64,000 nucleotides of DNA, taken from contig NC_092355.1 of the NCBI RefSeq assembly GCF_963676685.1, positions 81,158,001 through 81,222,000 on the forward strand, in the 5' to 3' direction. Each line of letters starts with the position of its first letter. Positions within the stretch are counted from its first letter, which is position 1. This document shows positions 331 through 64,000 of this stretch, piece by piece. Position numbers and translations under genes: made by a program. This DNA is from Mytilus edulis. Taxonomy: Eukaryota. The notes under the pieces are model-generated. The model saw only the letters and a program-made list of their open reading frames with translations, did not search any database and was not told where the DNA came from.

Positions 331-509
331 CTTCCAGTACAGGATCAGTAGCATTAGATACAACATCTTTCACCAAAACTAAAACACATTCCAGAAACAG
401 ATCTACATCTCAGAAACCCACCAATAAGAAGACAGATACAAAGGTCAAAGATCAGTGGGGCGAAAAACTGGCAGCCATGTTTCCTTTACTGAGGATGCTT
501 CAAGTACAT
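331..509 (+). CDS. VPS13B: VPS13B exon (window exon 1), ...WGEKLAAMFPLLRMLQVH
   Basis: ttcttcag acceptor, gtaagg donor, open frame, phase 1 to 0. Confidence 0.75.
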
Positions 510-3500
510 GTAAGGTTTTTTAAATAAAATAATAAAACAGAGATGAAAGTTGGCAAGAAATTGATATTGTTCAAAGATAAATGTTATTATTTGATAAACA
601 TTACTTTTAATATCAGATTAATACTAAAGCAGTATTAAGTACTAAAATCTATTTCCATGTGCCAAGTAGGAACCTAGTCAGTAGTTGAAACATTCTGATA
701 TTTTTATGATCATTTCTGTTTTAATAGTTTTATACATGTTTTGATATCTTAAATAATCTTATAATACAAGTGATATAATCCACTAATCACAACTTAACCT
801 GACAGAACCTTGTTATTCAAATTTTAGATAGAGGCTCAAAGTTGTGCTATATTTATCAACCAATCACCACTTAACCTATAGCTAACAGACCCTTGTTATT
901 CAATATTTCAGATAGAGGTTAAAAGTTGTGCTATATATATCCACCAATCATCACTAAACATGACTTGTCACAGAATAAAAGTTCCATCATAATATAAGTT
1001 CCAAAAGGAAAAAATATTCTGGAACATTATTTCCACAGGAATAAATATTACAGAATATGTTCCTAACGGAATAAATGGTATAGAATATTTGTTCCAACAT
1101 GAATAGATATTATTACAATATTTATAAGATCTTATAACAAAGTTTTCATTGGAACTTCTGTTAGGTGGTACAAATATACGTTGACAAACTGACCTTAGTT
1201 ATTCAATATTTCAGATAGAGGTTAAAAGGTGTGCTATATTTCTCTACCAATCACCACTTAACCTGACAGTCCCTGGTTATTTAATATTTCTGATAGAGGT
1301 TAAAAGTTGTGTTTAAAATATTTATCAATCAATCATCACTAAACCTGACAAAACCTTTGTTTTTTTAATATTTCAGATAGAGGTTAAAAGTTGTGCTATA
1401 TTTATCCACCAATCACCTTTACACCTGACAGAACCCAGTGTAGACATTTCCCAGAATCTGATGTCAGCTGTTACATCTAATACGCTACCTCCCACTTTAG
1501 TGGTCTGTCTACCACAGATTCACATCACTAGTTCTGGTATGAAATCTACGTCCTGTATACAGGAGATACCTGTTAACTCTATGGAAGGATCGTTAGTTGG
1601 TAAGGTTATATTGCACAATGAAAAAGATATTTTAAGCCAGTTTTTCCTTAAATCATGAGTTTATGTTTCATGCAAGTGTAGAGGGAATCATACACAGAAA
1701 CAAGAACACAAATATTAATGGACTTATTGTAACAGACAACATTATATTGAAGAAGCATTGTTTCATAATTTAATTAAAAGACCCATTACATAAGTTTAAC
1801 TGTTGTGAAATTTTTGTTATTCTCAAATAAGGAAATATATATAACAAAAGCAAATAAAATTTATTATATACTGTTTATTCATTATTATTCATGTGATATC
1901 AATTTTCATTGATTTTGTGGATAAAGAATGTAGCAATACTTAAATAAAAAAAAAAGAATTGAGAATAGAATGGGGCAATGAGACAAGAACCTAACCAAAG
2001 AGTAAAAATCAATTGAAGGCCAATAGCAGGGATCGACAATAACACTTGTCTGATAGTCATGTACCAGAGTAAAAAAAGGTTGGACCTGTAAAAGCTTGTC
2101 CCACAAAACAAGAAAAATAGTCCTGTATAAAATAAATTAAATTCAACTTGTTGATCACAAAAAACAGAAAAAGAAGGTAAAACAAATTATTATATTTTTG
2201 TGTAACCATTATTTATTATACAGGAGAGAAGTTGCCATGGAGAATGGTATTGAATCATTTTTGTGTACATACGATACTCTCTAAACAGACTGTAGTACCA
2301 ATCATAAAACCTACGACTGTCAGCTGTACAATCGGTGTCACCACAAAGTATAACCCTCCCACGTCAGACAATATATCATCTCTAGGACTGTGTTTACATA
2401 CTGATATGCATGCCGTTGTCATGGCGATATCTAAATCTCAGGTATATTACATCAGTTTCAAGGTGACACACTTTTGACCTTGAAACTTAACATATCAGTT
2501 TATTTGTTAACACTTTACTTCTCTATTTTCATTGTACTGTGCAAAAATTTCTTTCACAAAATTTGTTTTGATTAGACTTAAATACATGGAACTTCTCTGT
2601 TTAACACAAATTCTTTTGGTGGAACACATCTTAATATGGGTAAGAAAAGCAAGACAGTCATTACAACTAAATATTACTAGCCATCACAATAGAAAAATGA
2701 CATTAGTGTCCCTTAATGAATTTATAATCCTATTCATTAGACATGATAAAATCAAACAAAAGTTTGAAAGGATTGCAAATTTTACAATGTTTGCAATTTG
2801 TGATGCCAAATAATGGCTCTCCTCAAATTGCTTTTTTTGTAAATTCTGAGAAATGAATTCAATATAAGTATAAATCATTAAAGATTATAACCTTGTACTC
2901 CTGATGTGTGTTTCATCTACAAAAGACTCATCAGTCACGATCTAATCAAAATCATAAAAGACTCATCAGTCACGATCCAATCAAAATCATAAAAGACTCA
3001 TCAGTCACGATCCAATCAAAATCATAAAAAGCCAAAATCAAGAAGAAAATAATATGTGGTGTTAAATAGTCTTAAAATCACTAAAAATGTCAACCACTAT
3101 TAAATATATTACTTTAACAGTACTTACAAAATAAACAAACCCAATGAATCATTCCAGAACATTCTTATTTCTCTGTTATTTTTATATATAAAAAAGAAGA
3201 TGTGGTATGATTGCCAATGAGACAGCTATCCACAAAAGACCAAAATGACACAGACATTAACAACTATAGGTCACCGTACGGCCTTTAACAAAGAGCAAAG
3301 CCCATACCGCATAGTGAGCTATAAAAGGCCCCGATAAGACAATGTAAAACAATTCAAACGAGAAAACTAACGGCCTTATTTATGTAAAAAAATGAAAAAA
3401 AAACAAATATGTAACACATAAACAAACGACAATCACTGAATTACAGGCTCCTGACTTGGGACAGGCACATACATAAATAATGTGGCGGGGTTAAACATGT

Positions 3501-6500
3501 TAGCGGGATCCCAACCCTCCCCTAACCTGGGACAGTGGTATAACAGTACAACATAAGAACGAACAATAAAAATCAGTTGAAAAAGGCTAAACTCATCAGA
3601 TGGACAAAAATACAAGTGGACGTGGCCGGGTACTTATACATCCCGACACAAAAAGACACAATAAACAGATCTGAGAGTACTCGCAGTTATCTGACAGCTA
3701 GTTCAGATGGCAATTTGTTTGTTTGCAGATAGTTTTATGTAGCAGTTTATTAAATCAGCTGACAGGACTATTTGGTATGGTAATGTCTTTAATCAAATCA
3801 CTACACAAATCAGAACAGACGGTTACACCTACAACAGACCCACCAGACTTATCAGAAATAGCCCTCCCAGAACCAACACCCCTAGGTCAGTCACGAGACT
3901 ACACAGGGATGACAGAAACTGAGACATCAGATGTCACATCACGAGAACCAACACCTAACCGTGACCTTGAAAAGTCACCAGACAAAGTCAAACTGTCACT
4001 ATGGTTACAATGGACACTTCCAAAGCTGGAGTTGAGATTATATAGTGAGGCTATCACTAAAGAAAGTAAGTACATGAACTTTTCGGACCTTAAAGGTCAA
4101 TTCTTCCTGTAATGGATCACAAAATGTTAAAAAAAAAAGTTAAAAGAAAAAAAAATATGCTACTGGATTCATTTATTTTCGTGGGTACTAATTCTGTTGA
4201 TTGCAGAAATTTTCCTTTTTTGTGTATATGTAATTTCAAGGTTTTGTCAAAGTCTGCATATGTGATAGAAAATTTGTACTGTTTTGAACATTGAAATTTG
4301 TGGTTCACCTGTACCCACAAAAACCACAAAAATTCATATCCCACGAATAATAATGAATCCACAGTAATTGAAAAAGATGAGTTGAAAGAAAAAAAAAAAG
4401 GACCAAGACCCAAGGAAGAGGCAAACTATCCTGTCCACAAAATACTTCAGTAGAAACTTTTAGACAAAGAGATTAACCATAATCACATGACTAAAGGCAA
4501 ACTATCCTGTCCACAAAATACTTCAGTAGAAACTTTTAGACCAAGAGATTAACCATAATCACATGACTAAAGGCCAACTATCCTGTCCACAAAATACTTC
4601 AGTAGAAACTTTTAGACCAAGAGATTAACCATAATCACATGACTAAAGGCCAACTATCCTGTCCACAAAATACTTCAGTAGAAACTTTTAGACCAAGAGA
4701 TTAACCATAATCACATGACTAAAGGCAAACTATCCTGTCCACAAAATACTTCAGTAGAAACTTTTAGACCAAGAGATTAACCATAATCACATGACTAAAG
4801 GCAAACTATCCTGTCCACAAAATACTTCAGTAGAAACTTTTAGACCAAGAGATTAACCATAATCACATGACTAAAGGCAAACTATCCTGTCCACAAAATA
4901 CTTCAGTAGAAACTTTTAGACCAAGAGATTAACCATAATCACATGACTAAAGGCAAACTATCCTGTCCACAAAATACTTCAGTAGAAACTTTTAGACCAA
5001 GAGATTAACCATAATCACATGACTAAAGGCAAACTATCCTGTCCACAAAATACTTCAGTAGAAACTTTTAGACCAAGAGATTAACCATAATCACATGACT
5101 AAAGGCAAACTATCCTGTCCACAAAATACTTCAGTAGAAACTTTTAGACCAAGAGATTAACCATAATCACATGACTAAAGGCCAACTATCCTGTCCACAA
5201 AATACTTCAGTAGAAACTTTTAGACCAAGAGATTAACCATAATCACATGACTAAAGGCCAACTATCCTGTCCACAAAATACTTCAGTAGAAACTTTTAGA
5301 CCAAGAGATTAACCATAATCACATGACTAAAGGCAAACTATCCTGTCCACAAAATACTTCAGTAGAAACTTTTAGACCAAGAGATTAACCATAATCACAT
5401 GACTAAAGGCAAACTATCCTGTCCACAAAATACTTCAGTAGAAACTTTTAGACCAAGAGATTAACCATAATCACATGACTAAAGGCAAACTATCCTGTCC
5501 ACAAAATACTTCAGTAGAAACTTTTAGACCAAGAGATTAACCATAATCACATGACTAAAGGCAAACTATCCTGTCCACAAAATACTTCAGTAGAAACTTT
5601 TAGACCAAGAGATTAACCATAATCACATGACTAAAGGCAAACTATCCTGTCCACAAAATACTTCAGTAGAAACTTTTAGACCAAGAGATTAACCATAATC
5701 ACATGACTAAAGGCCAACTATCCTGTCCACAAAATACTTCAGTAGAAACTTTTAGACCAAGAGATTAACCATAATCACATGACTAAAGGCAAACTATCCT
5801 GTCCACAAAATACTTCAGTAGAAACTTTTAGACCAAGAGATTAACCATAATCACATGACTAAAGGCAAACTATCCTGTCCACAAAATACTTCAGTAGAAA
5901 CTTTTAGACAAAGAGATTAACCATAATCACATGACTAAAGGCAAACTATCCTGTCCACAAAATACTTCAGTAGAAACTTTTAGACCAAGAGATTAACCAT
6001 AATCACATGACTAAAGGCAAACTATCCTGTCCACAAAATACTTCAGTAGAAACTTTTAGACCAAGAGATTAACCATAATCACATGACTAAAGGCCAACTA
6101 TCCTGTCCACAAAATACTTCAGTAGAAACTTTTAGACCAAGAGATTAACCATAATCACATGACTAAAGGCAAACTATCCTGTCCACAAAATACTTCAGTA
6201 GAAACTTTTAGACCAAGAGATTAACCATAATCACATGACTAAAGGCAAACTATCCTGTCCACAAAATACTTCAGTAGAAACTTTTAGACCAAGAGATTAA
6301 CCATAATCACATGACTAAAGGCAAACTATCCTGTCCACAAAATACTTCAGTAGAAACTTTTAGACAAAGAGATTAACCATAATCACATGACTAAAGGCAA
6401 ACTATCCTGTCCACAAAATACTTCAGTAGAAACTTTTAGACCAAGAGATTAACCATAATCACATGACTAAAGGCAAACTATCCTGTCCACAAAATACTTC

Positions 6501-9500
6501 AGTAGAAACTTTTAGACCAAGAGATTAACCATAATCACATGACTAAAGGCAAACTATCCTGTCCACAAAATACTTCAGTAGAAACTTTTAGACCAAGAGA
6601 TTAACCATAATCACATGACTAAAGGCAAACTATCCTGTCCACAAAATACTTCAGTAGAAACTTTTAGACCAAGAGATTAACCATAATCACATGACTAAAG
6701 GCAAACTATCCTGTCCACAAAATACTTCAGTAGAAACTTTTAGACCAAGAGATTAACCATAATCACATGACTAAAGGCAAACTATCCTGTCCACAAAATA
6801 CTTCAGTAGAAACTTTTAGACCAAGAGATTAACCATAATCACATGACTAAAGGCAAACTATCCTGTCCACAAAATACTTCAGTAGAAACTTTTAGACCAA
6901 GAGATTAACCATAATCACATGACTAAAGGCAAACTATCCTGTCCACAAAATACTTCAGTAGAAACTTTTAGACCAAGAGATTAACCATAATCACATGACT
7001 AAAGGCAAACTATCCTGTCCACAAAATACTTCAGTAGAAACTTTTAGACCAAGAGATTAACCATAATCACATGACTAAAGGCAAACTATCCTGTCCACAA
7101 AATACTTCAGTAGAAACTTTTAGACCAAGAGATTAACCATAATCACATGACTAAAGGCCAACTATCCTGTCCACAAAATACTTCAGTAGAAACTTTTAGA
7201 CCAAGAGATTAACCATAATCACATGACTAAAGGCCAACTATCCTGTCCACAAAATACTTCAGTAGAAACTTTTAGACCAAGAGATTAACCATAATCACAT
7301 GACTAAAGGCCAACTATCCTGTCCACAAAATACTTCAGTAGAAACTTTTAGACCAAGAGATTAACCATAATCACATGACTAAAGGCCAACTATCCTGTCC
7401 ACAAAATACTTCAGTAGAAACTTTTAGACCAAGAGATTAACCATAATCACATGACTAAAGGCCAACTATCCTGTCCACAAAATACTTCAGTAGAAACTTT
7501 TAGACCAAGAGATTAACCATAATCACATGACTAAAGGCCAACTATCCTGTCCACAAAATACTTCAGTAGAAACTTTTAGACCAAGAGATTAACCATAATC
7601 ACATGACTAAAGGCAAACTATCCTGTCCACAAAATACTTCAGTAGAAACTTTTAGACCAAGAGATTAACCATAATCACATGACTAAAGGCAAACTATCCT
7701 GTCCACAAAATACTTCAGTAGAAACTTTTAGACCAAGAGATTAACCATAATCACATGACTAAAGGCAAACTATCCTGTCCACAAAATACTTCAGTAGAAA
7801 CTTTTAGACCAAGAGATTAACCATAATCACATGACTAAAGGCCAACTATCCTGTCCACAAAATACTTCAGTAGAAACTTTTAGACCAAGAGATTAACCAT
7901 AATCACATGACTAAAGGCAAACTATCCTGTCCACAAAATACTTCAGTAGAAACTTTTAGACCAAGAGATTAACCATAATCACATGACTAAAGGCAAACTA
8001 TCCTGTCCACAAAATACTTCAGTAGAAACTTTTAGACAAAGAGATTAACCATAATCACATGACTAAAGGCAAACTATCCTGTCCACAAAATACTTCAGTA
8101 GAAACTTTTAGACCAAGAGATTAACCATAATCACATGACTAAAGGCAAACTATCCTGTCCACAAAATACTTCAGTAGAAACTTTTAGACCAAGAGATTAA
8201 CCATAATCACATGACTAAAGGCCAACTATCCTGTCCACAAAATACTTCAGTAGAAACTTTTAGACCAAGAGATTAACCATAATCACATGACTAAAGGCAA
8301 ACTATCCTGTCCACAAAATACTTCAGTAGAAACTTTTAGACCAAGAGATTAACCATAATCACATGACTAAAGGCAAACTATCCTGTCCACAAAATACTTC
8401 AGTAGAAACTTTTAGACCAAGAGATTAACCATAATCACATGACTAAAGGCAAACTATCCTGTCCACAAAATACTTCAGTAGAAACTTTTAGACAAAGAGA
8501 TTAACCATAATCACATGACTAAAGGCAAACTATCCTGTCCACAAAATACTTCAGTAGAAACTTTTAGACCAAGAGATTAACCATAATCACATGACTAAAG
8601 GCAAACTATCCTGTCCACAAAATACTTCAGTAGAAACTTTTAGACCAAGAGATTAACCATAATCACATGACTAAAGGCAAACTATCCTGTCCACAAAATA
8701 CTTCAGTAGAAACTTTTAGACCAAGAGATTAACCATAATCACATGACTAAAGGCAAACTATCCTGTCCACAAAATACTTCAGTAGAAACTTTTAGACCAA
8801 GAGATTAACCATAATCACATGACTAAAGGCAAACTATCCTGTCCACAAAATACTTCAGTAGAAACTTTTAGACCAAGAGATTAACCATAATCACATGACT
8901 AAAGGCAAACTATCCTGTCCACAAAATACTTCAGTAGAAACTTTTAGACCAAGAGATTAACCATAATCACATGACTAAACGTTTTTAATCTACAAATTGT
9001 ATTTACTTGAATGGCAAAGTAAAACTTTAATGTAGTACCCTGTTGGAAATGGTAGAAAATAATATGAAAGTAACCTCAGTAGTAGCTATATATACGAAAT
9101 TAGATTGTGTATAAAATTATACTGGGTGCATGTCTTAAGAAAGCATAGAGAGGGGAAATTTTCCTATAGATTCTCCTATAGATAATATTTTAGAATATTA
9201 ATTATATTTTAGGTAGTAGAGTGACCTTAACCTCAGATGATTTGACCTTGTCATTAGATGTAGAACAAGTTTATACCAAGGCCAAGGTTAAATGTGGGTC
9301 TTGCAATGCTCATATCTACAATAAAAGTAAAACAAGGTAAAATTGTAAATTATCACATATAGTTCTCTTGAATACTTTTGAAAATTTCAAAATTCTGACT
9401 ATGAAAAAAAAAAAGAATTCTTTGTACATTGTATGTGTAACAGCTTTAAGATTGAATAATAACGCCAAATTTAAATTCAAATAAATGTTTAATTTCTTTA

Positions 9501-54500: not shown

Positions 54501-57500
54501 TGTAAGTTAATAACCAGAGGTATAGACAGGACCTAGGTAAAACCATGTACATAGATGGGTATGCTCAAACACAGATATTGATGACATCACAGCAAAACAT
54601 GCACGTAAGTCAATAACCTTTCCTGGGCCATTAATAGCTTGCTATATATATAGCTATGTAAGTAAGTAATTTTATTGAAATAAAGTCCAGATATTGAACT
54701 ATCATTAAATGAAGATATACATACATGTGTTTACACAATTGAACAAAATTATCAGACAACAATACAGTGAACACAACAATTAACAATGATTCCACATCGG
54801 AGTTCATGATGATGTAATTTATTTATTCTTAGTTATTTCAAAGAATTTACAGGTTATCTCTCTTATTACACAACAATGAAAATACTTTAATTCAGTAAAA
54901 TGTATGTCTACAGTGAATGATTGGTACATCTTGTTTATATGAATGTGAGACAGTAGTACTTGATAACTCCTCATGTTTATTATTGCAGGTTTGTGTTACT
55001 TAACATCAAACATAAGGGGTTTGCTGAAATGTTCCTTAATTGAGACGTATCAGATAGATTTTATGTTAAACTATTTTATTAATTATTTTTGTGTTTTTGG
55101 AAATGTATTTTGCATTTGCAATCATTTTGTTGATATCCTGAAATGTTCTGTCCATAAGAATACTCATAGAAAAATAAATGTTCTTTTAAAGTCTGTGGGT
55201 ATTTTTTAAAGAAAAAAGAAAATGAGACTTTTTACCTGTAAAACAAATGTAAACTCCTGAGCTTCCTATACAGGTTTGAAATTGTACAGGTATTTCTCTA
55301 TAGTTTAGATACATTATAATCTGTTTTAGGTATACTTCCTAACCCTGCAGTCTAAGATGGTGAATGGTATGAGGATTGTCAATGTCAGAGAGACGTACTG
55401 TATCAGTAATCATACCTCCATTGATCTGTTACTGTCACATCACAGTCTGCAGCCCTGTCCGCAAAAGGTAGCTACTTTTTCCTGTATTGTCTTAGTTGGC
55501 TAAAAAAAAAAAAAAGTATATATTCAATAGGTATATGGAAAGTCATAATTATGATGTGTTTAAAACAAGAAAGAAAATAATCATTACTCATGTTCTAGTA
55601 TCAACCAAACCAGCAAACTCTGATAATAACTTATAAAAAATTGTTATACCTGATCAATAATTGTAATAACTGATCAATGATTGTAATAACTGATCAATGA
55701 TTGTAATAACTGATCAATGATTGTAATACCTGATCAATGATTGTAATACCTGATCAATAATTGTAATAACTGATCAATGATTGTAATACCTGATCAATAA
55801 TTGTAATAACTGATCAATGATTGTAATACCTGATCAATAATTGTAATAACTGATCAATGATTGTAATACATGATCAATGATTGTAATACCTGATTAATAA
55901 TTGTAATTACTGGTCAATAATTGTAATAACTGATAAAAAATTGTAATACCTGATTAATAATTGTAATACCTGATCAATAATTGTAATAACTGATCAATAA
56001 TTGTAATAACTGATCAATGATTGTAATAACTGATCAATGATTGTTACAGGGATGATTCCAGGTGTTTACAAATGGGTCCCTTGAATATCAAATTGGGAAT
56101 TTTTATCCCAATTGGGAATTTTTGATGCATACAATATAAAACGAAATAATATATCATTTTCCTGTAAAAACGGAAAATAAATATTAAGTTAATTTCTTCT
56201 GTACACTGATTGAAGAAATTATTGGATTCAGACCAGGGAAGTTGTAATACATGAATATCATTGCATAGGATGCACTATCATCTTAACTTTGGTAAATGAG
56301 GCCTATATACCACAGGTACGAGCTAACATAAACATTTAGCTATTTATTCGAATTTCAAATTATCTCATAATATATACGATATCTCATATAATATATAAGA
56401 TTTATTTAAGATATCTTAAAGGATATGAAATATCTTATAAATATGTTTTGTATAAGATATTTCATATAGTTTATTGGATATCATATTAGGAAAATTATAT
56501 GAGATATCTTATAAACTACATGACTTTTTGTATAAGACATCTCATAAATTATTTCAGATATCTCGTGAACTATATAAGATATCTTATAAACTTTATAAGA
56601 TATCTTTCAAACTATATCAAATATCTAATGAACTATTATATAAGATATCTTATAAAGTTTATGAGATATCCTGAAGTAAGATTAAATAGCAAAACGGCTT
56701 GCCATATTAACCAGTGAAAAAAGTTTAAATGTATTTCAAATAGAACTGGCCAATTGTTGAATTAAGAAAAGCAATTACAAACGTATATATATATATATGC
56801 TTAATTGATAAGTTAATTAAAGCAATTGAACCAGTGAACTTTAAAATTATTTGGATCATTTTCATATCTTTTGAAACAGTTCCATAATGATGACATTTCA
56901 GGGGGGGGGTCTCATTTCATGAAGGGTCTATCATCAACATTATTTTCAAAAACGCTCAAACTTTTGTCTTTTGCGGAAAAAAGAGCAAAATATAAAATAA
57001 TTTCTTTTACAAAACAAGTTTTAATCAACATAACCGGCTCTGCTGGGCGATCTGCTTTTACCATTCAAATTCATTCATCAATGTTATATAAAATTTGGTC
57101 TTTGCCGAGGTCTGTTTTGACACCCATTTGGACAAAAAGCATATTTTTTATCAACCTGCTGAGCGATCTACTTTTACGAGACCACATACTCTCATAACAT
57201 TTTAACTTCAATTGAATCTGGCCGTTAAAATTGTTTACCTCATGTTGACATAATTAAATCGTTGTTAATAAAATGAGATCATAGTCAACATTTTTATCCG
57301 AATTTTACTATGTTTCAACGACAAACTATGAAAAATTATAGTCGCCGTTATCGGTGACGGAAACTTTGCTGGAAATAACGATTTTTGTTTTATTTTCCTG
57401 AATTGGGAATTTATATTGACAAACATTTTTTGGGGGCCGCTGGCCGATTTAAGGGCCGTTAAGCGGCCCTAAACTACATAGTGGAATCATCCCTGTGTTA

Positions 57501-60500
57501 TAACTGATTAATTAATATAATTACTGATCAATGATTGTAATAACTGATCAAACTGATAAAAAATTGTTATACCTGATTAATAATTGTAATACCTGATCAA
57601 TAATTGTAATACCTGATCAATAATTGTAATAATTGATCAATAATTGTAATACCTGATTAATAATTGTAATAACTGGTCAATAATTGTAATAACTGATTAA
57701 TAATTGTAATACCTGATTATTAATTGTAATAACTGATCAATGATTGTAATACCTGATTAATAATTGTAATACCTGATCAATAATTGTAATAACTGGTCAA
57801 TAACGGTAATAACTGATCAAAAATTGTAATACCTGATTAATAATTGTTATAACTGATCAATAATTGTAATAACTGATCAAGGATTATAATAACTGATCAA
57901 TAATTGTAATAACTGATCAATAATTGTAATAACTGATAAAAAATTATAATAACTGATCAATAATTATAATAACTGATCAATAATTACAATAACTGATAAT
58001 AAATTGTTATAACTGATTAATACTTATATACAAGTATTAGCTAAGCTAGTGGTGGATTTGCTGATCCAGTGTCCCTGCTTTCCACCTAGATTTACGAGAT
58101 TTCAACATTTGTGATAGTAGAAACTGTCATATTCCTGGCTTGGTACAGGCATTTTTATATGTAGAAAATGGTGGATTAAACATGGTTATTGCTAGCTTGA
58201 CATCTCACTTGTATGACAGTTGGCAACTTACAGAAAGTTCCATTATATTGACAACAGCTTGTGAACAAAACAAACAGACATAAAATGTAAAGATGTCAAA
58301 AATAGCAGTAAAGCAGTCAACATTGTGTCATAATTTTAATCACTAGAAACGACCTTTAAAATTCAATAGACCAGCATTGACCTGTATAATCCCCTTGAGG
58401 AGTATTGACTGGAGCAGTCTATTTCTCGATCATATTCAAATTTATATGTGAAGGTTGTTCCACTCAAAGTCATTCTATATTAATATGATTTTTATTTGAT
58501 TTCAGTTTTCTGTAAAATGTTCTGATGATAACATCAGGTATTTACAGTCAAAATCTACTGAAACTACACCACTACCTTCCTGGGCAGGCTACACCATGGA
58601 GGACACATCTAACATTGATATCAGCTTTGTTAACTATGTTATGATTAGACAACAGATAACCAATCAGAATACTGCATCTTCAGATAGATCTAGCACAAAT
58701 GATGATTGGTCATTCCCAGTTAGACTTGTAGCCAATGAAAATCCAGGAAGAGTAACAGTGTCTATTCCAGTTCAGACAGAGACTGTGATGTCACTTCCTC
58801 TATGCATTGTGGGTCAAACAAGGAATGGAGTCAGTTATTTTATAGTGAAAGAAGACAATTCCCCATCATGTTTATTGTATAACTTCACCACTGTACCAAT
58901 AGTCTATGGTTATCAGAATATCTCCATTTCTAGAGCAGGTTTGTATAACTTTACCACTGTACCAATAGTCTATGGTTATCAGAATATCTCCATTTCTAGA
59001 GCAGGTTTGTATAACTTCACCACTGTACCAATAGTCTATGGTTATCAGAATATCTCCATTTCTAGAGCAGGTTTGTATAACTTTACCACTGTACCAATAG
59101 TCTATGGTTATCAGAATATCTCCATTTCTAGAGCAGGTTTGTAGTTTTTTCTGACTTTTTGTTTAATTTTTAAAATGATACGAAAAGCTTATTTGCAGAG
59201 AAGCTTTATCAGAAATATACTTCTTAATTACTAATTTTACTAGGTTTAACCTTGTACGTCTGTCTGTATGTACGTCCCATAATTGGTTTTCATTCTTTAA
59301 CTTTAGTTTGCCTTAACCAAATGTTATGAAACTGGTACACAATGCTAATTACCTTAAAACACAGACCAAGTTTGAAATTTGGTTGCATTATTTAAAGTTA
59401 TGGAAAGAATTCAGTGTTAAAATTCTCAAAAATATCTATTAAAGAAATTGCAAGAATTTGAAATATTTTGTATATTTGTACTTATGTACTTTTACACACC
59501 AATAAATTTAAATAAGTAAAAAGAATCATTTAATTCTCAAGAAAATCTTTTTTTCTAATATAAGTACATTCAACTGTAATCTTATGAAATAGAACATTAT
59601 ACATGGAACTTTCATTCACAAATTTTTGTTTACAGGGTACACAACACAAGAGGAAGCTGAACTGACAGATATTTTACCCACAATTCCCCCAAATCAACAT
59701 GTGTTCTATACACCTTCCTCAACAAACCGTCAATTTTTATTATCCATTGGTGACTCAGGTTTACCAAAGATTCATGTGGGTGTTCAGCAAGCTTTGGAAA
59801 CTGATGAATCAAATACAGAGAGTAAACACTCAAGTGACCAAGATTCAGGGGTGTCATGGAGTGACCCTCTGGATGTTAATGAAGAAATGGAGAGATTTAT
59901 CTCAATCCCTAACAATATGAACTTGAAAATCAAGGTCATTAAGGTTTCCATGGTGACTCATGTTGTTATAAATGCAGCAAACAAAGCTGAAGTTTCTGCA
60001 AAGGAAATAAGGAATAAAATTGGCAAGGTGACAACAATGGAAAGTCATCCCTCATCAGACGATACCAATGTCAGCATCAGAGAGTATGATGTGTGTGTTC
60101 CTAAACAAGATGTGTTCATACACTCCAATTCAATCACTAGAAACTTAGAATTGTATATTAGTTTACACTTTCATCACTTATGTCTGATCCTACAGGATGA
60201 AACCAGTTCAAACAATGAAATCACAGAGATAATCCGTGTGTCATGTGACCATCTATTTTTAGCACATTATCCATTAATTGAAGGCTTTGATGATGATAGT
60301 CCAAGTCATGATTGCTATTCAATATCAGCAGAAAACCTTCAAGTTGATAATCAGTTGTATACTACCAAAGGGCTTTATGACTTTCCTGTAATTTTTGCAC
60401 GTCAGGAACTTAAATCTAAAGACAAGGATTTCCTTGTAGAATTCCATTCCATGAACCTGTCAGAAAAGTTAGCTGTGATAAAATCCAGAAGTTTTGCTCA

Positions 60501-63500
60501 CATTCAAGTTGTCATGGAAACTGATTGTTTGAGTCACTCATTAGTTAAAAGTGTTGAGATTGCTATGGAACCAGTCATAGGCAATATAGATGATAGATTT
60601 GTGTATCGAATGTTAGAGGAAGTGGAAAAACTTCTACCAACTTCTCTGCAAGACAACAAGAAAGGTCTAAAAGAAATAACCAGACTACCACAAGCTTTAA
60701 AAGTGATGTCACATGGTCTAAGTTCACCAATCAGAATAGAGCATTTGGTGATACATCCCTGTTCTTTACTGATTAGTGTGCATGCCTCATTGAAGGTATT
60801 TATAGCGTCTGACAAGACTCCGCTGTCCTTTGGGAAGTTTGAGAAAAAGAATGTGAACTCTACAGCCCACCAGCTGACTCGCGTACTAGCCATGCATTAT
60901 GCTTCTGGTGCCTTGTTTAGAGCAGGTTATTATATAAATATGCTAATATGATTTGACAATCCAAGTTTTAGTATATTTACTCTTAAGTAATGTAAAGAGA
61001 GGTGAAAGATACTAAAGAGAGAGTCAAACTCATAAGTTGACAACAAACTCAACATTTCATGACAAAAAAACGCAAAACACCTAAAAGAATAACAACAGTA
61101 CACAAAACACAACCAGTACCAAGGAAATGAAAGACTTAGCAACTTCAAAACATACACCATGGGGTGATCTCAGGTGATCTGGGGGTGATCTCGGGTGATC
61201 AGGGGGTGATCTCAGGTGATCTGGGGGTAATCTCGGGTGATCAGGGGGGGATCTCAGGTGATCTGGGGGTGATCTCGGGTGATCAGGGGGGATCTCGGGT
61301 GATCTGGGGGTGATCTCGGGTGATCAGGGGGGATCTCGGGTGATCAGGGGGTGATCTCAGGTGATCTGAGGGTGATCTCAGGTGAATGAGGTGATCTGGG
61401 GGTGATCTCAGGTGATTATTGATAGTTAGCAGATCCTCCTAAAAGATACTGTTACTGTTCACTATAGTAGTTTATATTTTTCGTAGATTACCGTAGTTAT
61501 AAAACTTTCCCACTAAACATTTAGTACACGACAACAATGATGTTTATAAACTCTACATATCTTTTCCAAATCTTTTTAACAGGTAAAAACAGCATTTGTG
61601 TATTTGTTACATTGTGACTGTATATTGAGATGGCATGTATTGAGATTGAAATTCAAAGATATATGAAGTCTAACTGCACAAAATCCAAGTTTTAACAATA
61701 AAATTGAGAATGGAAATGGGGAATGTATCAAAGAGACAATAACCAGACCATAGAAAAAACAACAGCAGAAGGTCACCAACAGGTCTTCAATGTAACGAGA
61801 AAATAACGCACCCGGAGGCGTCCTTCAGCTGGCCCCTAAACAAATATATACTAGTTCAGTGAATAACGTTTATTTTCCTGGGTACCAATTGTGGTTGGAT
61901 CTTTAGAATTTTTATATTATAGATGGTATGATAGTTGAAGGTGACTAATTTGACTTATTATTTTGACAGGTATTGTGGTTGGATCTTTGGAGATATTGGG
62001 GAACCCCACAGGGTTAGTCAGATCTATAGGCTCTGGTGTAGCAGACTTAGTACGATTACCCTATGGTGGCCTCACACAAGGACCAGGAGCATTTGTATCT
62101 GGGGTATCATCAGGGATGTCTTCCTTTGTCAGGAATATTTCTTCAGGTAATCAGTATTAATTAATTAGAGCCCCACCGAATGGAGGGTCTCCCTATAATG
62201 ATCAGTCTGTCCGTCCTTAACAAATTGTGTCCACACTATATTTAGAGAACCCTTATGATTGCATACTTAATACTTGACATGTATATTAAACAACACCAGA
62301 GGGTGGGTCATACTGTTTGTACAACTCTCTAGGTCAAAGATAGGTCAAGGTAAAAAAACTTTGGTTTCTGTGGACAACCCATTGTCCAATGGTAAAGATC
62401 TTGTCCGCTCTATTTCTTGAGAACCTTTCTGATATCAAAGTATATACTTGACATGTATAATTAAATAATTATGTATGTACAACGTCCTAAGTCCAAGGTC
62501 AAAAACTTTGGTTACAGTTGACAAATTACAACTTCATGTCCTAAGGTAAAGATACAATTGTTTTATACTCCACATTATTCACAGCGGGGCCACAGAGATG
62601 GCTCCCAGGAATATTTGTCTGCTCAATTATTTTTCAGGAATGTTGACCTCTATTAAATTATTTTTCAGGAATGCTGACCTCTGTTACAAACTTTGCCTCG
62701 AGTGTTTCCCGTAACATGGAACGACTATCAATGGACGACACACATAGAGAAAGACAGGAAGAAAGAAGGAGACAACATCCAGAGGGGTTGACTAGCGGAC
62801 TTAAAAATGGTCTAACAGGATTTGGAATGAGTCTTTTAGGTAGGTATATACATTTTGTACTAAAACATCAACTTATTTATTTGTATCTGGTTCAGGGGAG
62901 TGAGAAACATGGTCTAACCGGATTTTGGAATGAGTCTCTAAGGTCAGTATATTCTGAAGCATCAACTTATTTATTATACCCCCGCTTTCAAATTTTTTTT
63001 TACCTCTGTCTGTCCATCCATCCATCTGTCATTCTGTCCTTCCCAAGAATATTTTTTCACATTTCTCTGGAACTACATTAAAAGAATTTCTGAAATTTGG
63101 TTTCAGGGTTTATATAAGTCAGTTATACTGTGTGATGCGTTTTCAGATTCATCACTAAACAACTTTCTATTTACTGAATACTTGTATCATTTTACACATG
63201 ATAGCCAAGTTGAAAATTTCTCCACATTTTTCTCAGGAACTACAATACAAGGATTTCTGAATTTTGTTTCGGGGTTTATATAAGTCAGTTATACCGTGTG
63301 ATGGGTTTTCAGATTCATCAGTCAGAAACTTTCTGTTTACCTAAATATTTCGTCAGGGGCATCATCAGTGAGCAGTAGCTCACAGTTTAACTTTTTTATT
63401 TATGGTCTAGTGACTGATAAAAAGTTGTCATGTTCTGCTGAATTAGAGCTCATGAGTACGAAGCATTAAACTACTTCTATGTCTCCTTTTTAATAAAGAC

Positions 63501-63743
63501 TAATAACTTGAGTGAATAATGTTTTTACACCATTTACATTCTGACAAAAAGGTCTTCTTTTCATGACAGGTGCTGTTGCTGGTCTAGCTGATCAGCCATT
63601 ACAAAATCTGATGTCACGAAGTGAGAGTGAAGGTCAAAGGTCAGCTGCCACAGAATTAGTATCAGGTGTCGGAAAAGGACTTGTGGGAGTGTTTACCAAG
63701 CCTATTGGTGGTGCAGCAGAATTCTTTTCCCAGACAGGTCAAG
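331..63743 (+). CDS. VPS13B: VPS13B/COH1 orthologue (bridge-like lipid transfer protein), partial gene, 35 coding exons in window
   Basis: Spliced translation contains motifs I recognise from VPS13B: LAMHYASGALFRAG-IVVGSLEILGNPTGLVRSIG, SVHASLKVFIASD, YVICNDT..RFGQV.TEENILL, LAAAMRVDSC, PALEWN, VCGHALEMN, GVGKGLVGVFTKPIGGAAE. All exons are GT-AG bounded and phases match across every junction. Confidence 0.93.
770..1420 (+). repeat. Degenerate ~83-bp tandem copies of the exon-2 acceptor plus exon start
   Basis: tttcagatagaggttaaaagttgtgctata recurs near 822, 905, 1208, 1287 and at the real acceptor 1371; unrelated insert at ~966-1186. Confidence 0.8.
1377..1599 (+). CDS. VPS13B: VPS13B exon 2, IEVKSCAIFIHQ...EGSLV
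   Basis: tttcag / gtaagg, overlaps ORF 1461..1658, phase 0 to 1. Confidence 0.8.
2224..2441 (+). CDS. VPS13B: VPS13B exon 3, EKLPW...SLGLCLHTDM...SKSQ
   Basis: tacag / gtatat, ORF 2232..2477, phase 1 to 0. Confidence 0.85.
2921..3030. repeat. ~34-bp tandem repeat, 3 copies
   Basis: aaaagactcatcagtcacgatccaatcaaaatcat x3. Confidence 0.85.
3189..3704 (+). mobile_element. Dispersed interspersed repeat (family starting aaagaagatgtggtatgattgccaatgagaca)
   Basis: Near-identical copy at 46986-47278; fragments at ~25960, 43900 (rc), 47545-47945 (rc), 51335/52481. Confidence 0.75.
3729..4065 (+). CDS. VPS13B: VPS13B exon 4, ...KLSLWLQWTLPKL
   Basis: ttgcag / gtaagt, ORF 3723..4112, SLWLQW.LPK motif. 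Confidence 0.88.
4161..4364. mobile_element. ~200-bp TA-flanked MITE (Tc1/mariner-like); related copies at ~35551-35749 and 50472-50667
   Basis: Terminal inverted repeats tactg(t)ggattcat / atgaatccacagta shared by three loci. Confidence 0.7.
4420..8979. repeat. 76-bp minisatellite, 60 near-identical copies
   Basis: Unit ggcaaactatcctgtccacaaaatacttcagtagaaacttttagaccaagagattaaccataatcacatgactaaa; 4560 bp = 60 x 76. Confidence 0.97.
9213..9336 (+). CDS. VPS13B: VPS13B exon 5, ...LSLDVEQVYTKAKVKC
   Basis: ttttag / gtaaaa, phase 1 to 2. Confidence 0.82.
9751..10535 (+). CDS. VPS13B: VPS13B exon 6
   Basis: taccag / gtagtt, ORF 9788..10567 (FLNFTFTRA, PQADNPLPR, ENRQYQID). Confidence 0.9.
10958..11066 (+). 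CDS. VPS13B: VPS13B exon 7, ...QIPALEWN
   Basis: gaacag / gtcaat, phase 1 to 2. Confidence 0.82.
11584..11701 (+). CDS. VPS13B: VPS13B exon 8, ...VAAPAIVY
   Basis: ttgcag / gtatgt, phase 2 to 0. Confidence 0.82.
12243..12885 (+). CDS. VPS13B: VPS13B exon 9, ILVCGHALEMN...
   Basis: tttcag / gtaaaa, ORF 12270..12905. Confidence 0.9.
13297..13431 (+). CDS. VPS13B: VPS13B exon 10, ...WFETRPGKPHPKTGIPPSL
   Basis: atatag / gtaatt, phase 1 to 1. Confidence 0.85.
13806..14083 (+). repeat. 43-bp tandem repeat of the exon-11 acceptor
   Basis: tttatgaatagtattaatataatattttatctttagcaattat, about 6.5 copies. Confidence 0.9.
14077..14244 (+). CDS. VPS13B: VPS13B exon 11, ...RPLKVNFSL
   Basis: ctttag / gtaaag, phase 1 to 1. 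Confidence 0.8.
14292..14694. mobile_element. TTAA-bounded non-autonomous DNA element (Kolobok-like)
   Basis: ttaaaggatgt ... acatccttaa termini. Confidence 0.55.
14727..15257. mobile_element. MITE
   Basis: TIR gagggtggtaaaggg / ccctttaccaccttc, flanked by aattga direct repeat. Confidence 0.65.
17956..19469. mobile_element. Non-autonomous DNA transposon with subterminal ggggcga repeats and a nested repeat insertion (~18195-19103)
   Basis: Imperfect TIRs ggaagcaggacaagtcgcccc / ggggcgatttgtcatggattcc; 8-bp TSD cttcaaat. Confidence 0.7.
20319..20459 (+). CDS. VPS13B: VPS13B exon 12
   Basis: tttcag / gtaggg, inside ORF 20252..20491. Confidence 0.78.
20958..21155 (+). mobile_element. Solo LTR of the BEL/Pao element
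   Basis: 198 bp nearly identical to both LTRs of the downstream element; flanked by ATACT on both sides. Confidence 0.9.
21504..21517 (+). promoter_or_regulatory. Primer binding site complementary to the 3' end of tRNA-His
   Basis: TGGTGCCGTGACCC lies 1 nt after the 5' LTR and directly abuts the gag ATG. Confidence 0.75.
21518..23731 (+). CDS. BEL/Pao Gag (DUF1759-type, CCHC knuckles) plus DUF1758-type aspartic protease
   Basis: KLPKLDLPSFTGD..WQTFWESF, KFSYLKS, C-x2-C-x3-H-x4-C knuckles (CIYCKQSHSSVEC, CYSCFGSHKVSEC) plus CRKCDNKHHPSLC, ILLDEGSQKSF, LIGSDYYW, AVESKLGYLLSGP; no RT, RNase H or integrase core. Confidence 0.92.
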   Translation: MEKLKAIRGGHRSAVTRLINRTKERISQEDIGHEELSAAADNLTKKRNLLESLDSQILDGTELEDMEQEILDADDYAMNMEVAIRRFKDIVSGNKTTPFQQTVSETTYVPIANTLDSSNFPSTSIANHNSNHSENVFTVDNNSVYTNANPTTATNFYHKLPKLDLPSFTGDILTWQTFWESFETTIHHNPSLTNIQKFSYLKSQVHSEAAQCISGLSLSNANYEHAIILLKERYGQTQTIINAYMQNLLELTHPSLTPHSIRVFYDKMESCIRGLESLGQSQDTFGSLLVPIIFGKLPDEMKKLMTRENGKRNWDIRSLREAIGKEMYVQETGNSDKLDSFTPTASFHTTVEPKITTRPQYSINQFKPKTCIYCKQSHSSVECTSVVDRESRLAIIEQKKVCYSCFGSHKVSECRSRFRCRKCDNKHHPSLCDSNKNQEKESVSVSTAKYLPQNTIVSTVESKNDALTCYTSTLNIKPRTDILLKTAISPVWVDDRSATANILLDEGSQKSFISEELAAELQLKPNGTSTVSLAAFGDENRNIRYLDIAVIDLQTQNGKKIPMEVFIVPTIAAPLHNRMPYNAANLPYLSGLTLAHPVSDMDKFRISFLIGSDYYWDIVEDTVIRGPGPTAVESKLGYLLSGPMKDSAGPTSSSFMLQHKTEEVDLKRFGKIESMGEVSDNSMKFNKDYFETYHSKSNTMKNNGRIHTFSREPGIMKIHGDRAPSKTEAKLKIQTWT
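25052..25314 (+). CDS. VPS13B: VPS13B exon 13, ...IGQEHI
   Basis: tttcag / gtaagt, ORF 25060..25482. Confidence 0.85.
25776..25905 (+). CDS. VPS13B: VPS13B exon 14, ...DDLRQGQFNYVID
   Basis: weak ttctag acceptor, gtatgt donor, DDLR.G.F.Y motif, phase 0 to 1. Confidence 0.72.
26297..27747. mobile_element. hAT-like non-autonomous element with 6-bp TSD
   Basis: TIR cagtgatcgggaagga / tccttccagatcactg; TGCAAT on both sides. Confidence 0.72.
27791..27972 (+). CDS. VPS13B: VPS13B exon 15, ...MTWCYHQPRVV...TPIPF
   Basis: tttcag / gtaagt, ORF 27778..28047. Confidence 0.85.
27885..29434 (+). repeat. 101-bp tandem array of the exon-15 3' half plus donor (15 donors); remnant resumes at 33627-33706 after the LINE
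   Basis: Donor gtaagt recurs every 101 bp from 27973 to 29387. Confidence 0.95.
29911..30705 (+). CDS. LINE ORF1, SGNH/GDSL esterase-like
   Basis: Block I ILFTDSKG, block III-like IWLGTCE, block V SDGVHP. Confidence 0.75.
   Translation: MSVRKIIKERKKIYQRVRGAHLERDTILFTDSKGVGLKEYIPESTGQKFKVLYKRGGSIDNKKHIKSLIDTVKDLDHPIILIWLGTCEITQKINKTIQFRKSPYQNIEETLTQYRDLKQQIITTKPSATVLFIECPYYSITRANKPKDSINLIVNSKKKTYPSLLVNKATKGYRKVQLATNIDKELSEQIDYFNDHLKLINRLYSTPRISQDFILSNKTKRDTKVKYRKNFNLTSDGVHPIRAVNKLWMLKFIDLALELSEQGC
31522..33579 (+). CDS. LINE ORF2 reverse transcriptase (frame open from ~31281; only the GKSDH tail of the APE endonuclease remains)
   Basis: KSPGPDNLHP, NYRPVSLTS, DFMKAFDTVPH, PQGSVLGPLLF, LFADDTKIF, RRVRGDMIETYK, WNKLP, FKNRLD. 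Confidence 0.95.
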   Translation: MTQIGKKRNVFPIDKKTRELIRRKNILSKKIITKQDPETRAEYNQVRNQAKTSVNKQKKLFEKGLSENAKRNPKAIWSYIKSKSKTREGIGDLHVDTEDVKSEKTDDNKQKAEILSEYFTSVFTNEPQGNIPEPKHIPLDKKIEELNIGTDLVLKHLQKIKTDKSPGPDNLHPRLLFEVKEGIAEPLGIIFSQSLTQKVVPKDWKSALVSAIFKKGNKSQAKNYRPVSLTSVVCKIMEKIIREHIINYMKENKLFSNKQYGFISGRSTSLQLLEVIDKWTEAIDNGYEIDCIYTDFMKAFDTVPHRRLVKKIENFGITNPFLEWITDFLSYRKQRVSVNGETSEWKDVTSGIPQGSVLGPLLFVLYINDLPDCVTSDAYLFADDTKIFRIIESKTDQTILQDDLKNLEKWSDTWLLKFHPEKCKHINISRGVREEKTSYKLLGQDISKCQEEKDIGVVIDEDLTFERHICEKVNKANSTFAAIRRTFKNLNEKIFIPLYKTLVRTHLDYASSVWSPFKKKSIDKIENVQKRATRQIPGFNKMSYPERLKKLKLPTLSYRRVRGDMIETYKILNGNYDPETSSFLKLISSTENRHSTRVNSNKIIHQRFKTSLRKNSFSVRIAKLWNKLPDKVTKAPSINSFKNRLDRYWEYEEIYYSDYRAELTGSSIRNNGDNIQLYESGEEEP
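33880..34070 (+). CDS. VPS13B: VPS13B exon 16, IPCCLQYYD...FELSE
   Basis: ttttag / gtaagt, phase 0 to 2. Confidence 0.85.
34125..35050 (+). repeat. 114-bp tandem array of the exon-17 acceptor plus 5' half
   Basis: AG at 34284, 34398, 34512, 34626, 34740, 34854 and 34968, plus a decayed copy at ~34136. Confidence 0.95.
34969..35135 (+). CDS. VPS13B: VPS13B exon 17, ...LAAAMRVDSC
   Basis: ttccag / gtattt; this is the last and only complete copy of a duplicated acceptor unit. Confidence 0.85.
35768..37591 (+). mobile_element. Helentron-associated non-autonomous element (HINE/DINE-type) with ~502-bp internal tandem repeats
   Basis: 5' gctcacctgg, (cgtc)n microsatellite, over 3 internal units, 3' ggtgagc plus ggctctttagagcc hairpin, T-rich flanks. 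Confidence 0.85.
37668..37804 (+). CDS. VPS13B: VPS13B exon 18
   Basis: tttcag / gtactg, phase 1 to 0. Confidence 0.8.
37947..38295 (+). mobile_element. Dispersed repeat (aataaaattgagaatggaaatggggaatgtgtcaaagagac family); second copy 61697-61864
   Basis: Two alignable copies within the window. Confidence 0.7.
38330..38440 (+). CDS. VPS13B: VPS13B exon 19
   Basis: ttatag / gtaaga, 111 nt open. Confidence 0.75.
39038..39139 (+). CDS. VPS13B: VPS13B exon 20, ...VGQGNVHT
   Basis: tttcag / gtatgg, 102 nt open. Confidence 0.8.
39644..39727 (+). CDS. VPS13B: VPS13B exon 21, YVICNDTSHTVRFGQ
   Basis: tttcag / gtaatc, conserved motif. Confidence 0.87.
39859..40057. repeat. 48-bp tandem repeat, ~4 copies
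   Basis: ttatctgatactatgtgtctctgattcatcattatatattgtattatg. Confidence 0.9.
40080..40220. repeat. ~140-bp foldback palindrome, probably part of a non-autonomous element extending to ~40820
   Basis: catttttcatatcgcatgtattatcagccct ... agggctgataatacatgcgatatgaaaaatg. Confidence 0.8.
40938..41833. repeat. 32-bp minisatellite, ~28 copies
   Basis: taaaactatagatccttgagtatcggtcagat. Confidence 0.95.
41958..42035 (+). CDS. VPS13B: VPS13B exon 22, VGTEENILL...YSWRS
   Basis: ttgaag / gtatga, conserved motif. Confidence 0.87.
42553..43164. mobile_element. MITE with perfect 22-bp TIRs
   Basis: ctagagtggggtgctcattttc / gaaaatgagcaccccactctag. Confidence 0.8.
43431..43583 (+). CDS. VPS13B: VPS13B exon 23, ELHMCLDG..WKWCEAF
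   Basis: ttttag / gtaata, 153 nt open. Confidence 0.85.
44354..44602 (+). CDS. VPS13B: VPS13B exon 24
   Basis: ttacag / gtaagt, ORF 44336..44614. Confidence 0.82.
44751..45786. mobile_element. Tc1/mariner(pogo)-like MITE
   Basis: TA|caatgaaacctgggtaaaccgaac ... gttcggtttggacaggtttcactg|TA. Confidence 0.75.
46183..46768 (+). repeat. 65-bp tandem array of the exon-25 acceptor plus 5' half (9 acceptors)
   Basis: AG every 65 bp from 46204 to 46724. Confidence 0.95.
46725..46805 (+). CDS. VPS13B: VPS13B exon 25, IPCVQESYIHVWCHV
   Basis: last copy of the 65-bp acceptor array continues into unique sequence and a gtaaac donor. Confidence 0.8.
47969..48141 (+). CDS. VPS13B: VPS13B exon 26, VMFCPLYVLRSHLP
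   Basis: ccatag / gtattg, conserved motif, phase 0 to 2. Confidence 0.85.
48284..48985. mobile_element. TTAA-bounded (Kolobok-like) element with a nested palindromic element (48569-48723)
   Basis: ttaaggatgt ... acatccttaa; internal foldback taagaaatgactgtaatattttttctgtct / agacagaaaaaatattacagtcattcctta. Confidence 0.65.
49185..49746. repeat. 28-bp minisatellite, ~19 copies
   Basis: ctagaggattccaaatacctgacaaaaa. Confidence 0.93.
49916..50074 (+). CDS. VPS13B: VPS13B exon 27, ...DKWPY
   Basis: tttcag / gtaagt, phase 2 to 2. Confidence 0.78.
50830..51073 (+). CDS. VPS13B: VPS13B exon 28, ...TLLIDVCPWCLLTN
   Basis: tcacag / gtaatt, ORF 50810..51127. Confidence 0.85.
51401..52480 (+). mobile_element. 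hAT-like MITE with 5-bp TSD (copy 1)
   Basis: TIR cagggatgattcca / tggaatcatccctg, TSD AACAC; splits a dispersed repeat. Confidence 0.85.
53013..54385 (+). repeat. ~90-bp tandem array of the exon-29 acceptor plus 5' part (15 acceptors)
   Basis: ttacag|tcatcctttagtattggt recurs from 53021 to 54327. Confidence 0.95.
54328..54501 (+). CDS. VPS13B: VPS13B exon 29
   Basis: last copy of the 90-bp acceptor array continues into unique coding sequence and a gtaagt donor; phase 0 to 0. Confidence 0.78.
55330..55467 (+). CDS. VPS13B: VPS13B exon 30
   Basis: ttttag / gtagct, 138 nt open, phase 0 to 0. Confidence 0.78.
55620..58021. repeat. 20-bp minisatellite split by MITE copy 2
   Basis: tgatcaataattgtaataac units at 55620-56046 and 57496-58021. 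Confidence 0.9.
56047..57495 (-). mobile_element. hAT-like MITE copy 2 (inverted relative to 51401-52480) with a nested gatatct-rich insert at ~56345-56706
   Basis: Same TIRs, TSD TGTTA, body aligns in reverse complement to copy 1. Confidence 0.85.
58506..58938 (+). CDS. VPS13B: VPS13B exon 31 (3' end ambiguous: in-frame donors after 58938, 59004, 59070, 59136)
   Basis: tttcag acceptor, ORF 58596..59144. Confidence 0.8.
58875..59142 (+). repeat. 66-bp tandem array of the exon-31 3' end plus donor, 4 copies
   Basis: LYNFTTVPIVYGYQNISISRAG x4, each ending GCAG|GTTTGT. Confidence 0.95.
59636..60925 (+). CDS. VPS13B: VPS13B exon 32 (large exon), ...LAMHYASGALFRA
   Basis: ttacag / gttatt, ORF 59626..60951. 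Confidence 0.93.
61161..61416. repeat. G-rich ~10-bp degenerate repeat (ggggtgatct)n
   Basis: Direct inspection. Confidence 0.9.
61970..62146 (+). CDS. VPS13B: VPS13B exon 33, VVGSLEILGNP (ATG2_C-like glycine-rich region)
   Basis: tgacag / gtaatc, ORF 61963..62160. Confidence 0.93.
62165..62607 (+). mobile_element. HINE-like element; a second HINE-like element lies at ~62974-63388
   Basis: 5' gcccca/acccccgc, (gtcc/atcc)n microsatellite, 3' gcggggc/ggggc plus short hairpin. Confidence 0.55.
62669..62839 (+). CDS. VPS13B: VPS13B exon 34, MLTSVTNFASSVSRNMERLS
   Basis: tttcag / gtaggt, ORF 62671..63081. Confidence 0.92.
63570..63743 (+). CDS. VPS13B: VPS13B exon 35, AVAGLADQP...FTKPIGGAAEFFSQTGQ
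   Basis: tgacag / gtaagg, ORF 63563..63781. Confidence 0.92.
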
Positions 63744-64000
63744 GTAAGGTTAAAGGTCAGCTGTCACAGAAGAAGTGTTAGGTTAGTGGTTCTACAGAAT
63801 TCCTGAACCAGACAGGTCAAGGTAAGGTTAGAGGTCAGGTGTTACAGAAGAAGTGTTAGGTTAGTGGTTCTACAGCATTCCTGAACCAGACAGGTCAAGG
63901 TAAGGTTAGAGGTCAGCTGTTACAGAAGAAGTGTTAGGTTAGTGGTTCTACAGAATTCTTTTCCCAGACAGGTCAAGGTAAGGTTAGAGGTCAGGTGTTA
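63716..64000 (+). repeat. 78-bp tandem array of the exon-35 3' end plus donor (at least 4 donors, runs off the window)
   Basis: cagacaggtcaag|gtaagg ending at 63743, 63821, 63899 and 63977. Confidence 0.92.

Follow-up and report, generated by a model that had tools for sequence, protein, structure and literature searches.

Tandem duplications across splice junctions of the mussel gene VPS13B: a probable, modest junction bias and exon-rich repeat units

Why should the exon–intron junctions of a single gene be tandemly duplicated time and again? The question is raised by a 64,000-nucleotide (nt) stretch of Mytilus edulis DNA (NC_092355.1, positions 81,158,001 to 81,222,000; hereafter the window, in whose coordinates all positions are given), which carries 35 internal exons of VPS13B (331..63743, + strand). 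Its arrays are mirage-type minisatellites, a type already known from amphioxus, where passages of PMC3087553 and PMC3902484 describe mirages as minisatellite-like tandem duplications over exon–intron boundaries and trace them to the original report of Canestro et al. 2002. In VPS13B as a whole, 15 of the 97 junctions bear such arrays, including junctions in flanks that the first-pass annotation of the window had not seen, and its claim of gene-wide tandem duplication at junctions is thereby confirmed. The underlying bias toward junctions is probably real but modest, about 2–2.5-fold, and VPS13B, which lies where repeats are plentiful, stands out as an outlier.

The host gene was identified by the exon at 59636-60925, which is 97% identical to M. 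coruscus VPS13B over 429 amino acids; the gene spans approximately −28,900 to +70,300, and the window belongs to an 82.3-Mb contig, one end of which is about 1.1 Mb away. In our hand-read exon model, all 35 exons have AG/GT ends, and together they form a stop-free open reading frame (ORF) of 2,746 amino acids. Exons 10–35 are mostly covered, in colinear order, by bivalve VPS13B proteins (tblastn; ark shell and pearl oyster), and exons 1–9 are based on frame continuity. The exon numbering is that of the first-pass annotation; A and D denote the acceptor and donor of the numbered exon, so that A29 is the acceptor of exon 29.

Within the window, arrays detected by Tandem Repeats Finder (TRF) straddle 10 of the 70 junctions (A2, A11, D15, A17, A25, A29, D29, D31, A34, and D35), counted by side as five acceptor and five donor arrays. 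In these 10, as in five arrays upstream and 22 elsewhere, a unit spanning the exon–intron boundary is repeated head to tail. The units measure 31–114 nt in the window and 27–139 nt in the arrays elsewhere. The A2 mirage (802..1436; all the features described here lie on the + strand) consists of two blocks of a decayed 84-nt unit (78–88% matches) with an exon part of 60 nt. The 43-nt unit of the A11 mirage (13793..14083) is intron-rich, with an exon part of 7 nt, and the array presents six decoy AGs. The D15 mirage (27884..29434) contains 15.4 copies of 101 nt with 99% matches and 14 decoy donors. A long interspersed nuclear element (LINE)-like insertion (29435-33625), with an RVT_1 ORF at 31282-33579 and an upstream ORF at 29881-30705 that lacks a Pfam match, lies inside the last D15 unit, and the array resumes at 33626. 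Because the insertion interrupts this unit, the array is the older of the two. The A17 mirage (34264..35049) has 6.9 copies of 114 nt, plus an extra decayed unit near 34137, and all seven of its decoys lead to a stop. The A25 mirage (46181..46768) has nine copies of 65 nt and eight decoys, one of them in frame, while the A29 mirage (53015..54391) has about 14.6 copies of 90 nt in two blocks, with three of its 14 decoys in frame. D29 is a duplication of 103 nt in two copies (54410..54618). The D31 mirage (58875..59143) has 4.1 copies of 66 nt, and its three decoys are all in frame and stop-free. A34 is a two-copy duplication of 31 nt (62625..62686). Finally, the D35 mirage (63730..64000, continuing to 64166) has 5.6 copies of an intron-rich 78-nt unit with an exon part of 14 nt.

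Outside the window, VPS13B has 14 more exons with 27 junctions, and five of these junctions have donor arrays. One of the arrays has a 41-nt unit arranged as two blocks; three others are 128 nt × 47.5, 90 nt × 6, and 64 nt × 12, and the tail of the last occupies positions 1..104, its exon ending 653 bases before the window. The largest consists of about 90 nt repeated over 11.8 kb, or about 130 copies (TRF reports 181 × 65). The copy number of up to 15 that had first been noted holds for the window (15–16 copies) and is far exceeded just upstream in the same gene.

Could the assembler itself have multiplied the units? Some of the arrays are 97–99% uniform, and their copy numbers may be off. 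Individual units, however, differ by substitutions of their own, have decayed edges, and contain transposon insertions; matches of 78% to 100% indicate a spread of ages; and arrays of the same type occur at 22 other places and in the gene models of another species. We thus regard an assembly artefact as hardly credible.

A local-alignment scan of the 70 junctions placed 16 of the 17 sites listed in the first-pass annotation in the top 16 ranks. The list was therefore largely apt, although five of its sites do not stand out singly and A21 is not a tandem case. D9, D10, A23, D27, and A33 score 29–35, and since 8–11% of 400 intronic control positions reach the same scores, none of the five is singly above background. 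The D9 site is a decayed two-copy duplication (12826..13000), and the alignments at D10, D27, and A33 stop short of the junction. The decayed two-copy duplication at D34 (62790..62945) is below the TRF threshold, and its score of 59 is borderline (5.5% of controls). At A21, a displaced copy of about 140 nt, comprising the 3′ end of intron 20 and the A21 junction, lies about 2.9 kb downstream (42413..42555).

How many straddling arrays would be expected by chance? TRF reported 44 rows in the window, which merged into 28 clusters and, after joining arrays split by insertions, 25 independent events. Fifteen of the 25 lie off the junctions, including the largest, a purely intronic array of 76 nt × 60 (4419-8979, 99% matches). 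In the null model, every array was collapsed to one unit and placed randomly outside exon interiors. Twenty-four events entered this test, and the sole wholly exonic event, an in-frame 12-nt duplication just 5′ of the exon 9 donor (12853-12878), was left out. Ten straddling events were observed against 1.74 expected (P = 1.6e-6), and even the harshest null, which masked transposons and used a footprint of 1.5 units, gave 10 against 3.6 (P = 1e-3). Because the window was chosen for showing the pattern, these P values are inflated.

Is the excess also found in independent genes? We located exons of the same genome through six Pfam families (myosin, kinesin, SNF, Aldedh, HECT, and Cpn60), using 420 of the 488 listed matches. 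The omissions were for the most part small-contig duplicates, HECT-like matches without introns or in tandem, and some lone SNF matches. The 30 best kinase loci, which are mostly intronless, were excluded as test exons. The set comprised 360 exons within 144 segments (1.16 Mb), yielding 654 junctions above the weight-matrix threshold. The segments were picked for many matches per 10 kb, which favours compact genes. Without masking, 19 of the 654 junctions were straddled, against 11.35 expected among 318 arrays (P = 0.019). As many of the other arrays sit within transposons, we excluded from both the arrays and the null any DNA that recurs at two or more other loci. In the remaining single-copy DNA, 19 straddling arrays were observed against 7.7 expected among 232 (ratio 2.47, 95% block-bootstrap range 1.37–3.85). 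A slower decay of the exon copy could keep old two-copy cases detectable, yet the excess persists among arrays with at least 90% matches (13 against 5.25, ratio 2.48). Five of the 19 mirages lie in four kinesin genes at G000:C7:9.3-10.7 Mb, which suggests regional hot domains, and the single-copy ratio minus the C7 9-11 Mb cluster is 1.93 (1.02–3.04). We then assembled a hold-out set of 60 further exons with 110 junctions, for which the predictions were fixed beforehand. Pooled over the independent and hold-out sets, 22 of 764 junctions (2.9%) are straddled, which differs from the window with its 10 of 70 (P = 1e-4). Recurrent junction-straddling duplication was thus rightly recognized, and the excess over chance holds in independent genes; the enrichment is about 2–2.5-fold and concerns about 3% of junctions, not the 14% of the window.

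What do the repeat units themselves reveal? On average, exon sequence makes up 0.77 of the unit in the 19 independent cases, where the null predicts 0.50, and 0.65 in the window. In the independent and hold-out sets together, 20 of the 22 units are exon-rich, about four times the 4.75 expected (P = 6e-5), and the two intron-rich units represent no excess. The intron part has a median length of 12 nt in donor units and 24 nt in acceptor units (P = 0.03). Arrays that merely hug a junction are not enriched in the independent genes (20 of 213 within 100 nt, against 18.5 expected). The proposal that junction DNA is prone to duplication is therefore better framed as a proneness of exon-containing DNA. 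The second proposal, that the arrays are simply tolerated survivors, does not fit when taken alone, since tolerance neither lifts the count above chance nor skews the units toward the exon. In contrast, a higher duplication rate in exon-containing DNA would account together for the excess, the exon-rich skew, the short intron parts, and the absence of enriched hugging arrays. If selection had any effect here, it would be to favour acceptor units rich in intron, as these retain the branch point.

Several other causes were considered and set aside. Shielding of near-exon DNA from deletion was rejected, as non-straddling arrays are no nearer to junctions than chance. The intronic units are slightly GC-richer than the background (32.4% vs 30.1%), but a GC-weighted null lifts the expectation only from 6.4 to 6.9–7.4, against 18 observed. 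Frame selection on unit length was also rejected, with 14 of 34 periods divisible by 3, and templating by spliced cDNA is unlikely, as the units contain 2–64 intron bases. In young arrays, straddling and intronic alike, the terminal remainders are 0–7 nt; D15 and A17, the ends of which are truncated or decayed, depart from this pattern.

Which of the repeated sites does the spliceosome use? The ten window arrays hold 60 decoys with AG or GT, and 46 of these either outscore the real site or fall no more than 0.5 bit below it. Only seven decoys, in A25, A29, and D31, keep the frame, and the other 53 lead to a stop. The intact exon had been described as always lying at the exon-proximal end, which is true but follows from the geometry. 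RNA contigs from run X15 contain one copy, fitting the proximal site, at five of the ten arrays (A29, D29, D31, A34, and D35). The contig fits use of the last AG at A29 and of the first GT at D29, with exon 29 present once in it (54323-54501; five extra bases are shared with the end of exon 28). At D31 the contig joins 58938 to 59636. The spacing for exons 33 and 34 is exactly 349 bases, as expected with the proximal A34, and a contig ends at the first exon 35 donor. In the raw RNA reads X22-X24 on 44200-64000, the VPS13B depth is 0–6, the joints are mostly those of transposon reads, and no splice joints are listed.

Do the decoys serve a function, tuning splicing or providing repeat-length protein variants that selection keeps? 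The seven in-frame decoys would allow it, and the copy number of the exon 30 tail varies among the M. coruscus models, a variation that may reflect prediction artefacts. The 53 decoys leading to a stop, the lack of bias toward periods in multiples of 3, the differences in arrays between the two Mytilus species, and the single copy in the RNA contigs all argue against it, and we consider functional arrays very improbable. Alternative splicing and repeat-length protein polymorphism, for which the arrays had been thought to provide raw material, remain putative, with only seven of the 60 decoys in frame. Most probably, the arrays are neutral passengers without a regulatory role. In the three M. 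coruscus VPS13B models the exon 30 tail, present once in M. edulis, occurs in two, three, and five copies, and one copy is seen at each of A29 and D31. Compared at the level of these models, the exon 30 tail copies point to an independent event, with arrays arising separately in each lineage. The models also point to gene predictors being misled by arrays. The C-terminus of an M. coruscus model continues beyond the M. edulis stop with about eleven copies of a 21-residue repeat, possibly another mis-predicted array.

How might such arrays originate? We judge it somewhat more probable than otherwise that they are exon-born duplications, kept only when they carry a splice signal and then enlarged as minisatellites. 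The process would start with short, microhomology-type duplications, likelier in exon-containing DNA. A wholly exonic duplication would alter the protein and be purged, whereas a unit with a splice signal would turn the extra copies into intron and would likely be kept. The expansion of minisatellites by ordinary turnover is well established, and the arrays would likely grow in this manner. The spliceosome would take the site beside the intact exon (the first donor, the last acceptor), and nonsense-mediated decay would clear most splicing slips. A candidate cause of the duplications is recombination slipping at a homology edge between divergent haplotypes. As a bolder and tentative extension, exons may be about four-fold mutational hot spots for 30–150-nt tandem duplication in mussels, possibly as homology islands between very divergent haplotypes, with the mirages as the visible survivors.

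Several points weigh against this explanation by exon-born duplication. That exon DNA duplicates more often, and why it would, are deductions, and two of the ten window arrays (A11 and D35) are intron-rich. The junctions outside VPS13B were inferred from Pfam matches and the weight matrix, not from transcripts. Clear junction copies are seen in 17 of the 19 printed alignments, and two myosin cases are doubtful, without which the ratio is 2.21. The unmasked ratio of 1.67 has a block-bootstrap range of 0.90–2.65, and with a 1.5-unit footprint the unmasked independent genes show no significant excess (19 vs 16.6). In the hold-out, three of 110 junctions were straddled, the same rate as before, against 1.8 expected with masking (P = 0.26) and 2.7 without. 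As for site choice, run X15 comes from another individual, in which the arrays may be absent, and rare forms are lost in contigs.

The weak unmasked excess and the non-significant hold-out are what would be expected if junction duplications were merely tolerated chance events in a large gene, near a repeat-rich chromosome end, that was picked for its pattern. Array density indeed peaks within 2 Mb of chromosome ends (46 vs 24 events per 100 kb), and most of the window events lie off the junctions. Chance leaves the exon-rich units unexplained, however, the unselected flanking VPS13B exons show arrays at 5 of 27 junctions, and the nulls were already conditioned on the local number of arrays. 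We thus regard chance as an unlikely sole explanation.

A further alternative places the origin at the edges of homology: where an animal's heterozygosity is high, homologues would begin to recombine in the conserved exons and slip at the point just beyond the splice signal at which homology stops, which would fix the intron-side breakpoint at that point. High heterozygosity is a trait of both amphioxus and mussels, and the short intron parts match the footprints of the donor and acceptor signals. In the first sample, 14 of 205 junctions within 12 Mb of chromosome ends were straddled, against 5 of 449 elsewhere. This cut was made post hoc, however, five of the 14 near-end cases lie in one C7 region, and the effect failed in the hold-out (1 of 36 near the ends vs 2 of 74); we treat it as unproven. 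Moreover, selection for an intact signal also sets lower limits to the intron part. As a full account, it appears quite improbable.

How do the mussel arrays compare with known systems? In the passages of PMC3087553 and PMC3902484, amphioxus mirages occur in Adh3, the globins BflGb6 and BflGb9, TnC, and PGBD5. As in the mussel, both the 5′ and 3′ ends are affected, many units carry AG or GT, and the reported units of 10–160 nt include the range of the window units. PMC3087553 proposes mirages as a route of intron gain, and the mechanism is called unclear. Splicing is reported to be unaffected in amphioxus; in the mussel, site choice was judged from contigs of a single RNA run. For amphioxus, variation in array length and somatic instability (Adh3) are also reported, and the mussel comparison uses assembly sequence. 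The mussel differs in being a mollusc with 15 arrays at the 97 junctions of one gene and up to about 130 copies, and in that the excess over chance and the exon-rich skew were measured; the amphioxus passages contain no such test. In the human F7 gene, the 37-bp variable number tandem repeat (VNTR) of intron 7 resembles the mussel donor arrays in that its first unit crosses the exon–intron junction, and the most upstream of 5–9 identical donors is used although the others are functional (PMC1557585). The F7 VNTR is one donor-side locus tested by mutagenesis, while the mussel window has both donor and acceptor arrays and RNA contigs only. The idea that the spliceosome picks the exon-proximal site thus has an experimental precedent, at donors. 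In a potato gene for RNA-dependent RNA polymerase (RdRp), according to PMC4974935, an intron was gained by tandem duplication across an intron–exon boundary; like the mussel acceptor arrays, the duplicated unit crosses the acceptor junction and carries its own signals, but a new intron resulted, and none was shown in the mussel arrays. The term "mirage" is used in another sense in PMC13712769. In the literature searched, outside of which lay subscription papers and supplements, neither a genome-wide test of enrichment at junctions nor a report of mirages in a mollusc was found.

Other repeats were seen in and around the window. A long terminal repeat (LTR)-type element (20946-24116) lies inside the 48-nt array of intron 12; its ORF (21515-23731) has DUF1759 and DUF1758, its terminal repeat is tandemly copied on the left, and no reverse transcriptase ORF is listed. 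By eye, 56047-57497 and 51400-52480 are related elements that face in opposite directions, and the former splits a 20-nt array (55624-58022). Further downstream, a 3.69-kb tandem repeat in at least 11 copies (L213:801-8764; window coordinates about 115,000-161,000) has in every unit an identical lysine-rich ORF of 191 amino acids, which we take to resemble linker histone H1. Intronless kinase-domain ORFs are tandemly arranged at G000:C1:44.21-44.23 Mb (every 1.87 kb, at least 10 copies) and at C3:19.69 Mb (every 1.77 kb, at least 4 copies; both sites in L074-L088).

What do these arrays mean for mussel biology? For a known repeat type, the present analysis adds a measured, modest excess and an exon-rich skew, which is a concrete clue to the cause of mirages. 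The acceptor arrays are relevant to how a 3′ splice site is chosen: as many as 14 equivalent AGs precede the real one, and a scan for the first AG would pick the wrong copy. In practice, the arrays mislead gene prediction and short-read mapping in bivalves. If exons are indeed hot spots of tandem duplication, about 3% of all junctions would carry decoy arrays, providing thousands of natural tests of how one site is chosen among identical ones, acceptors included.

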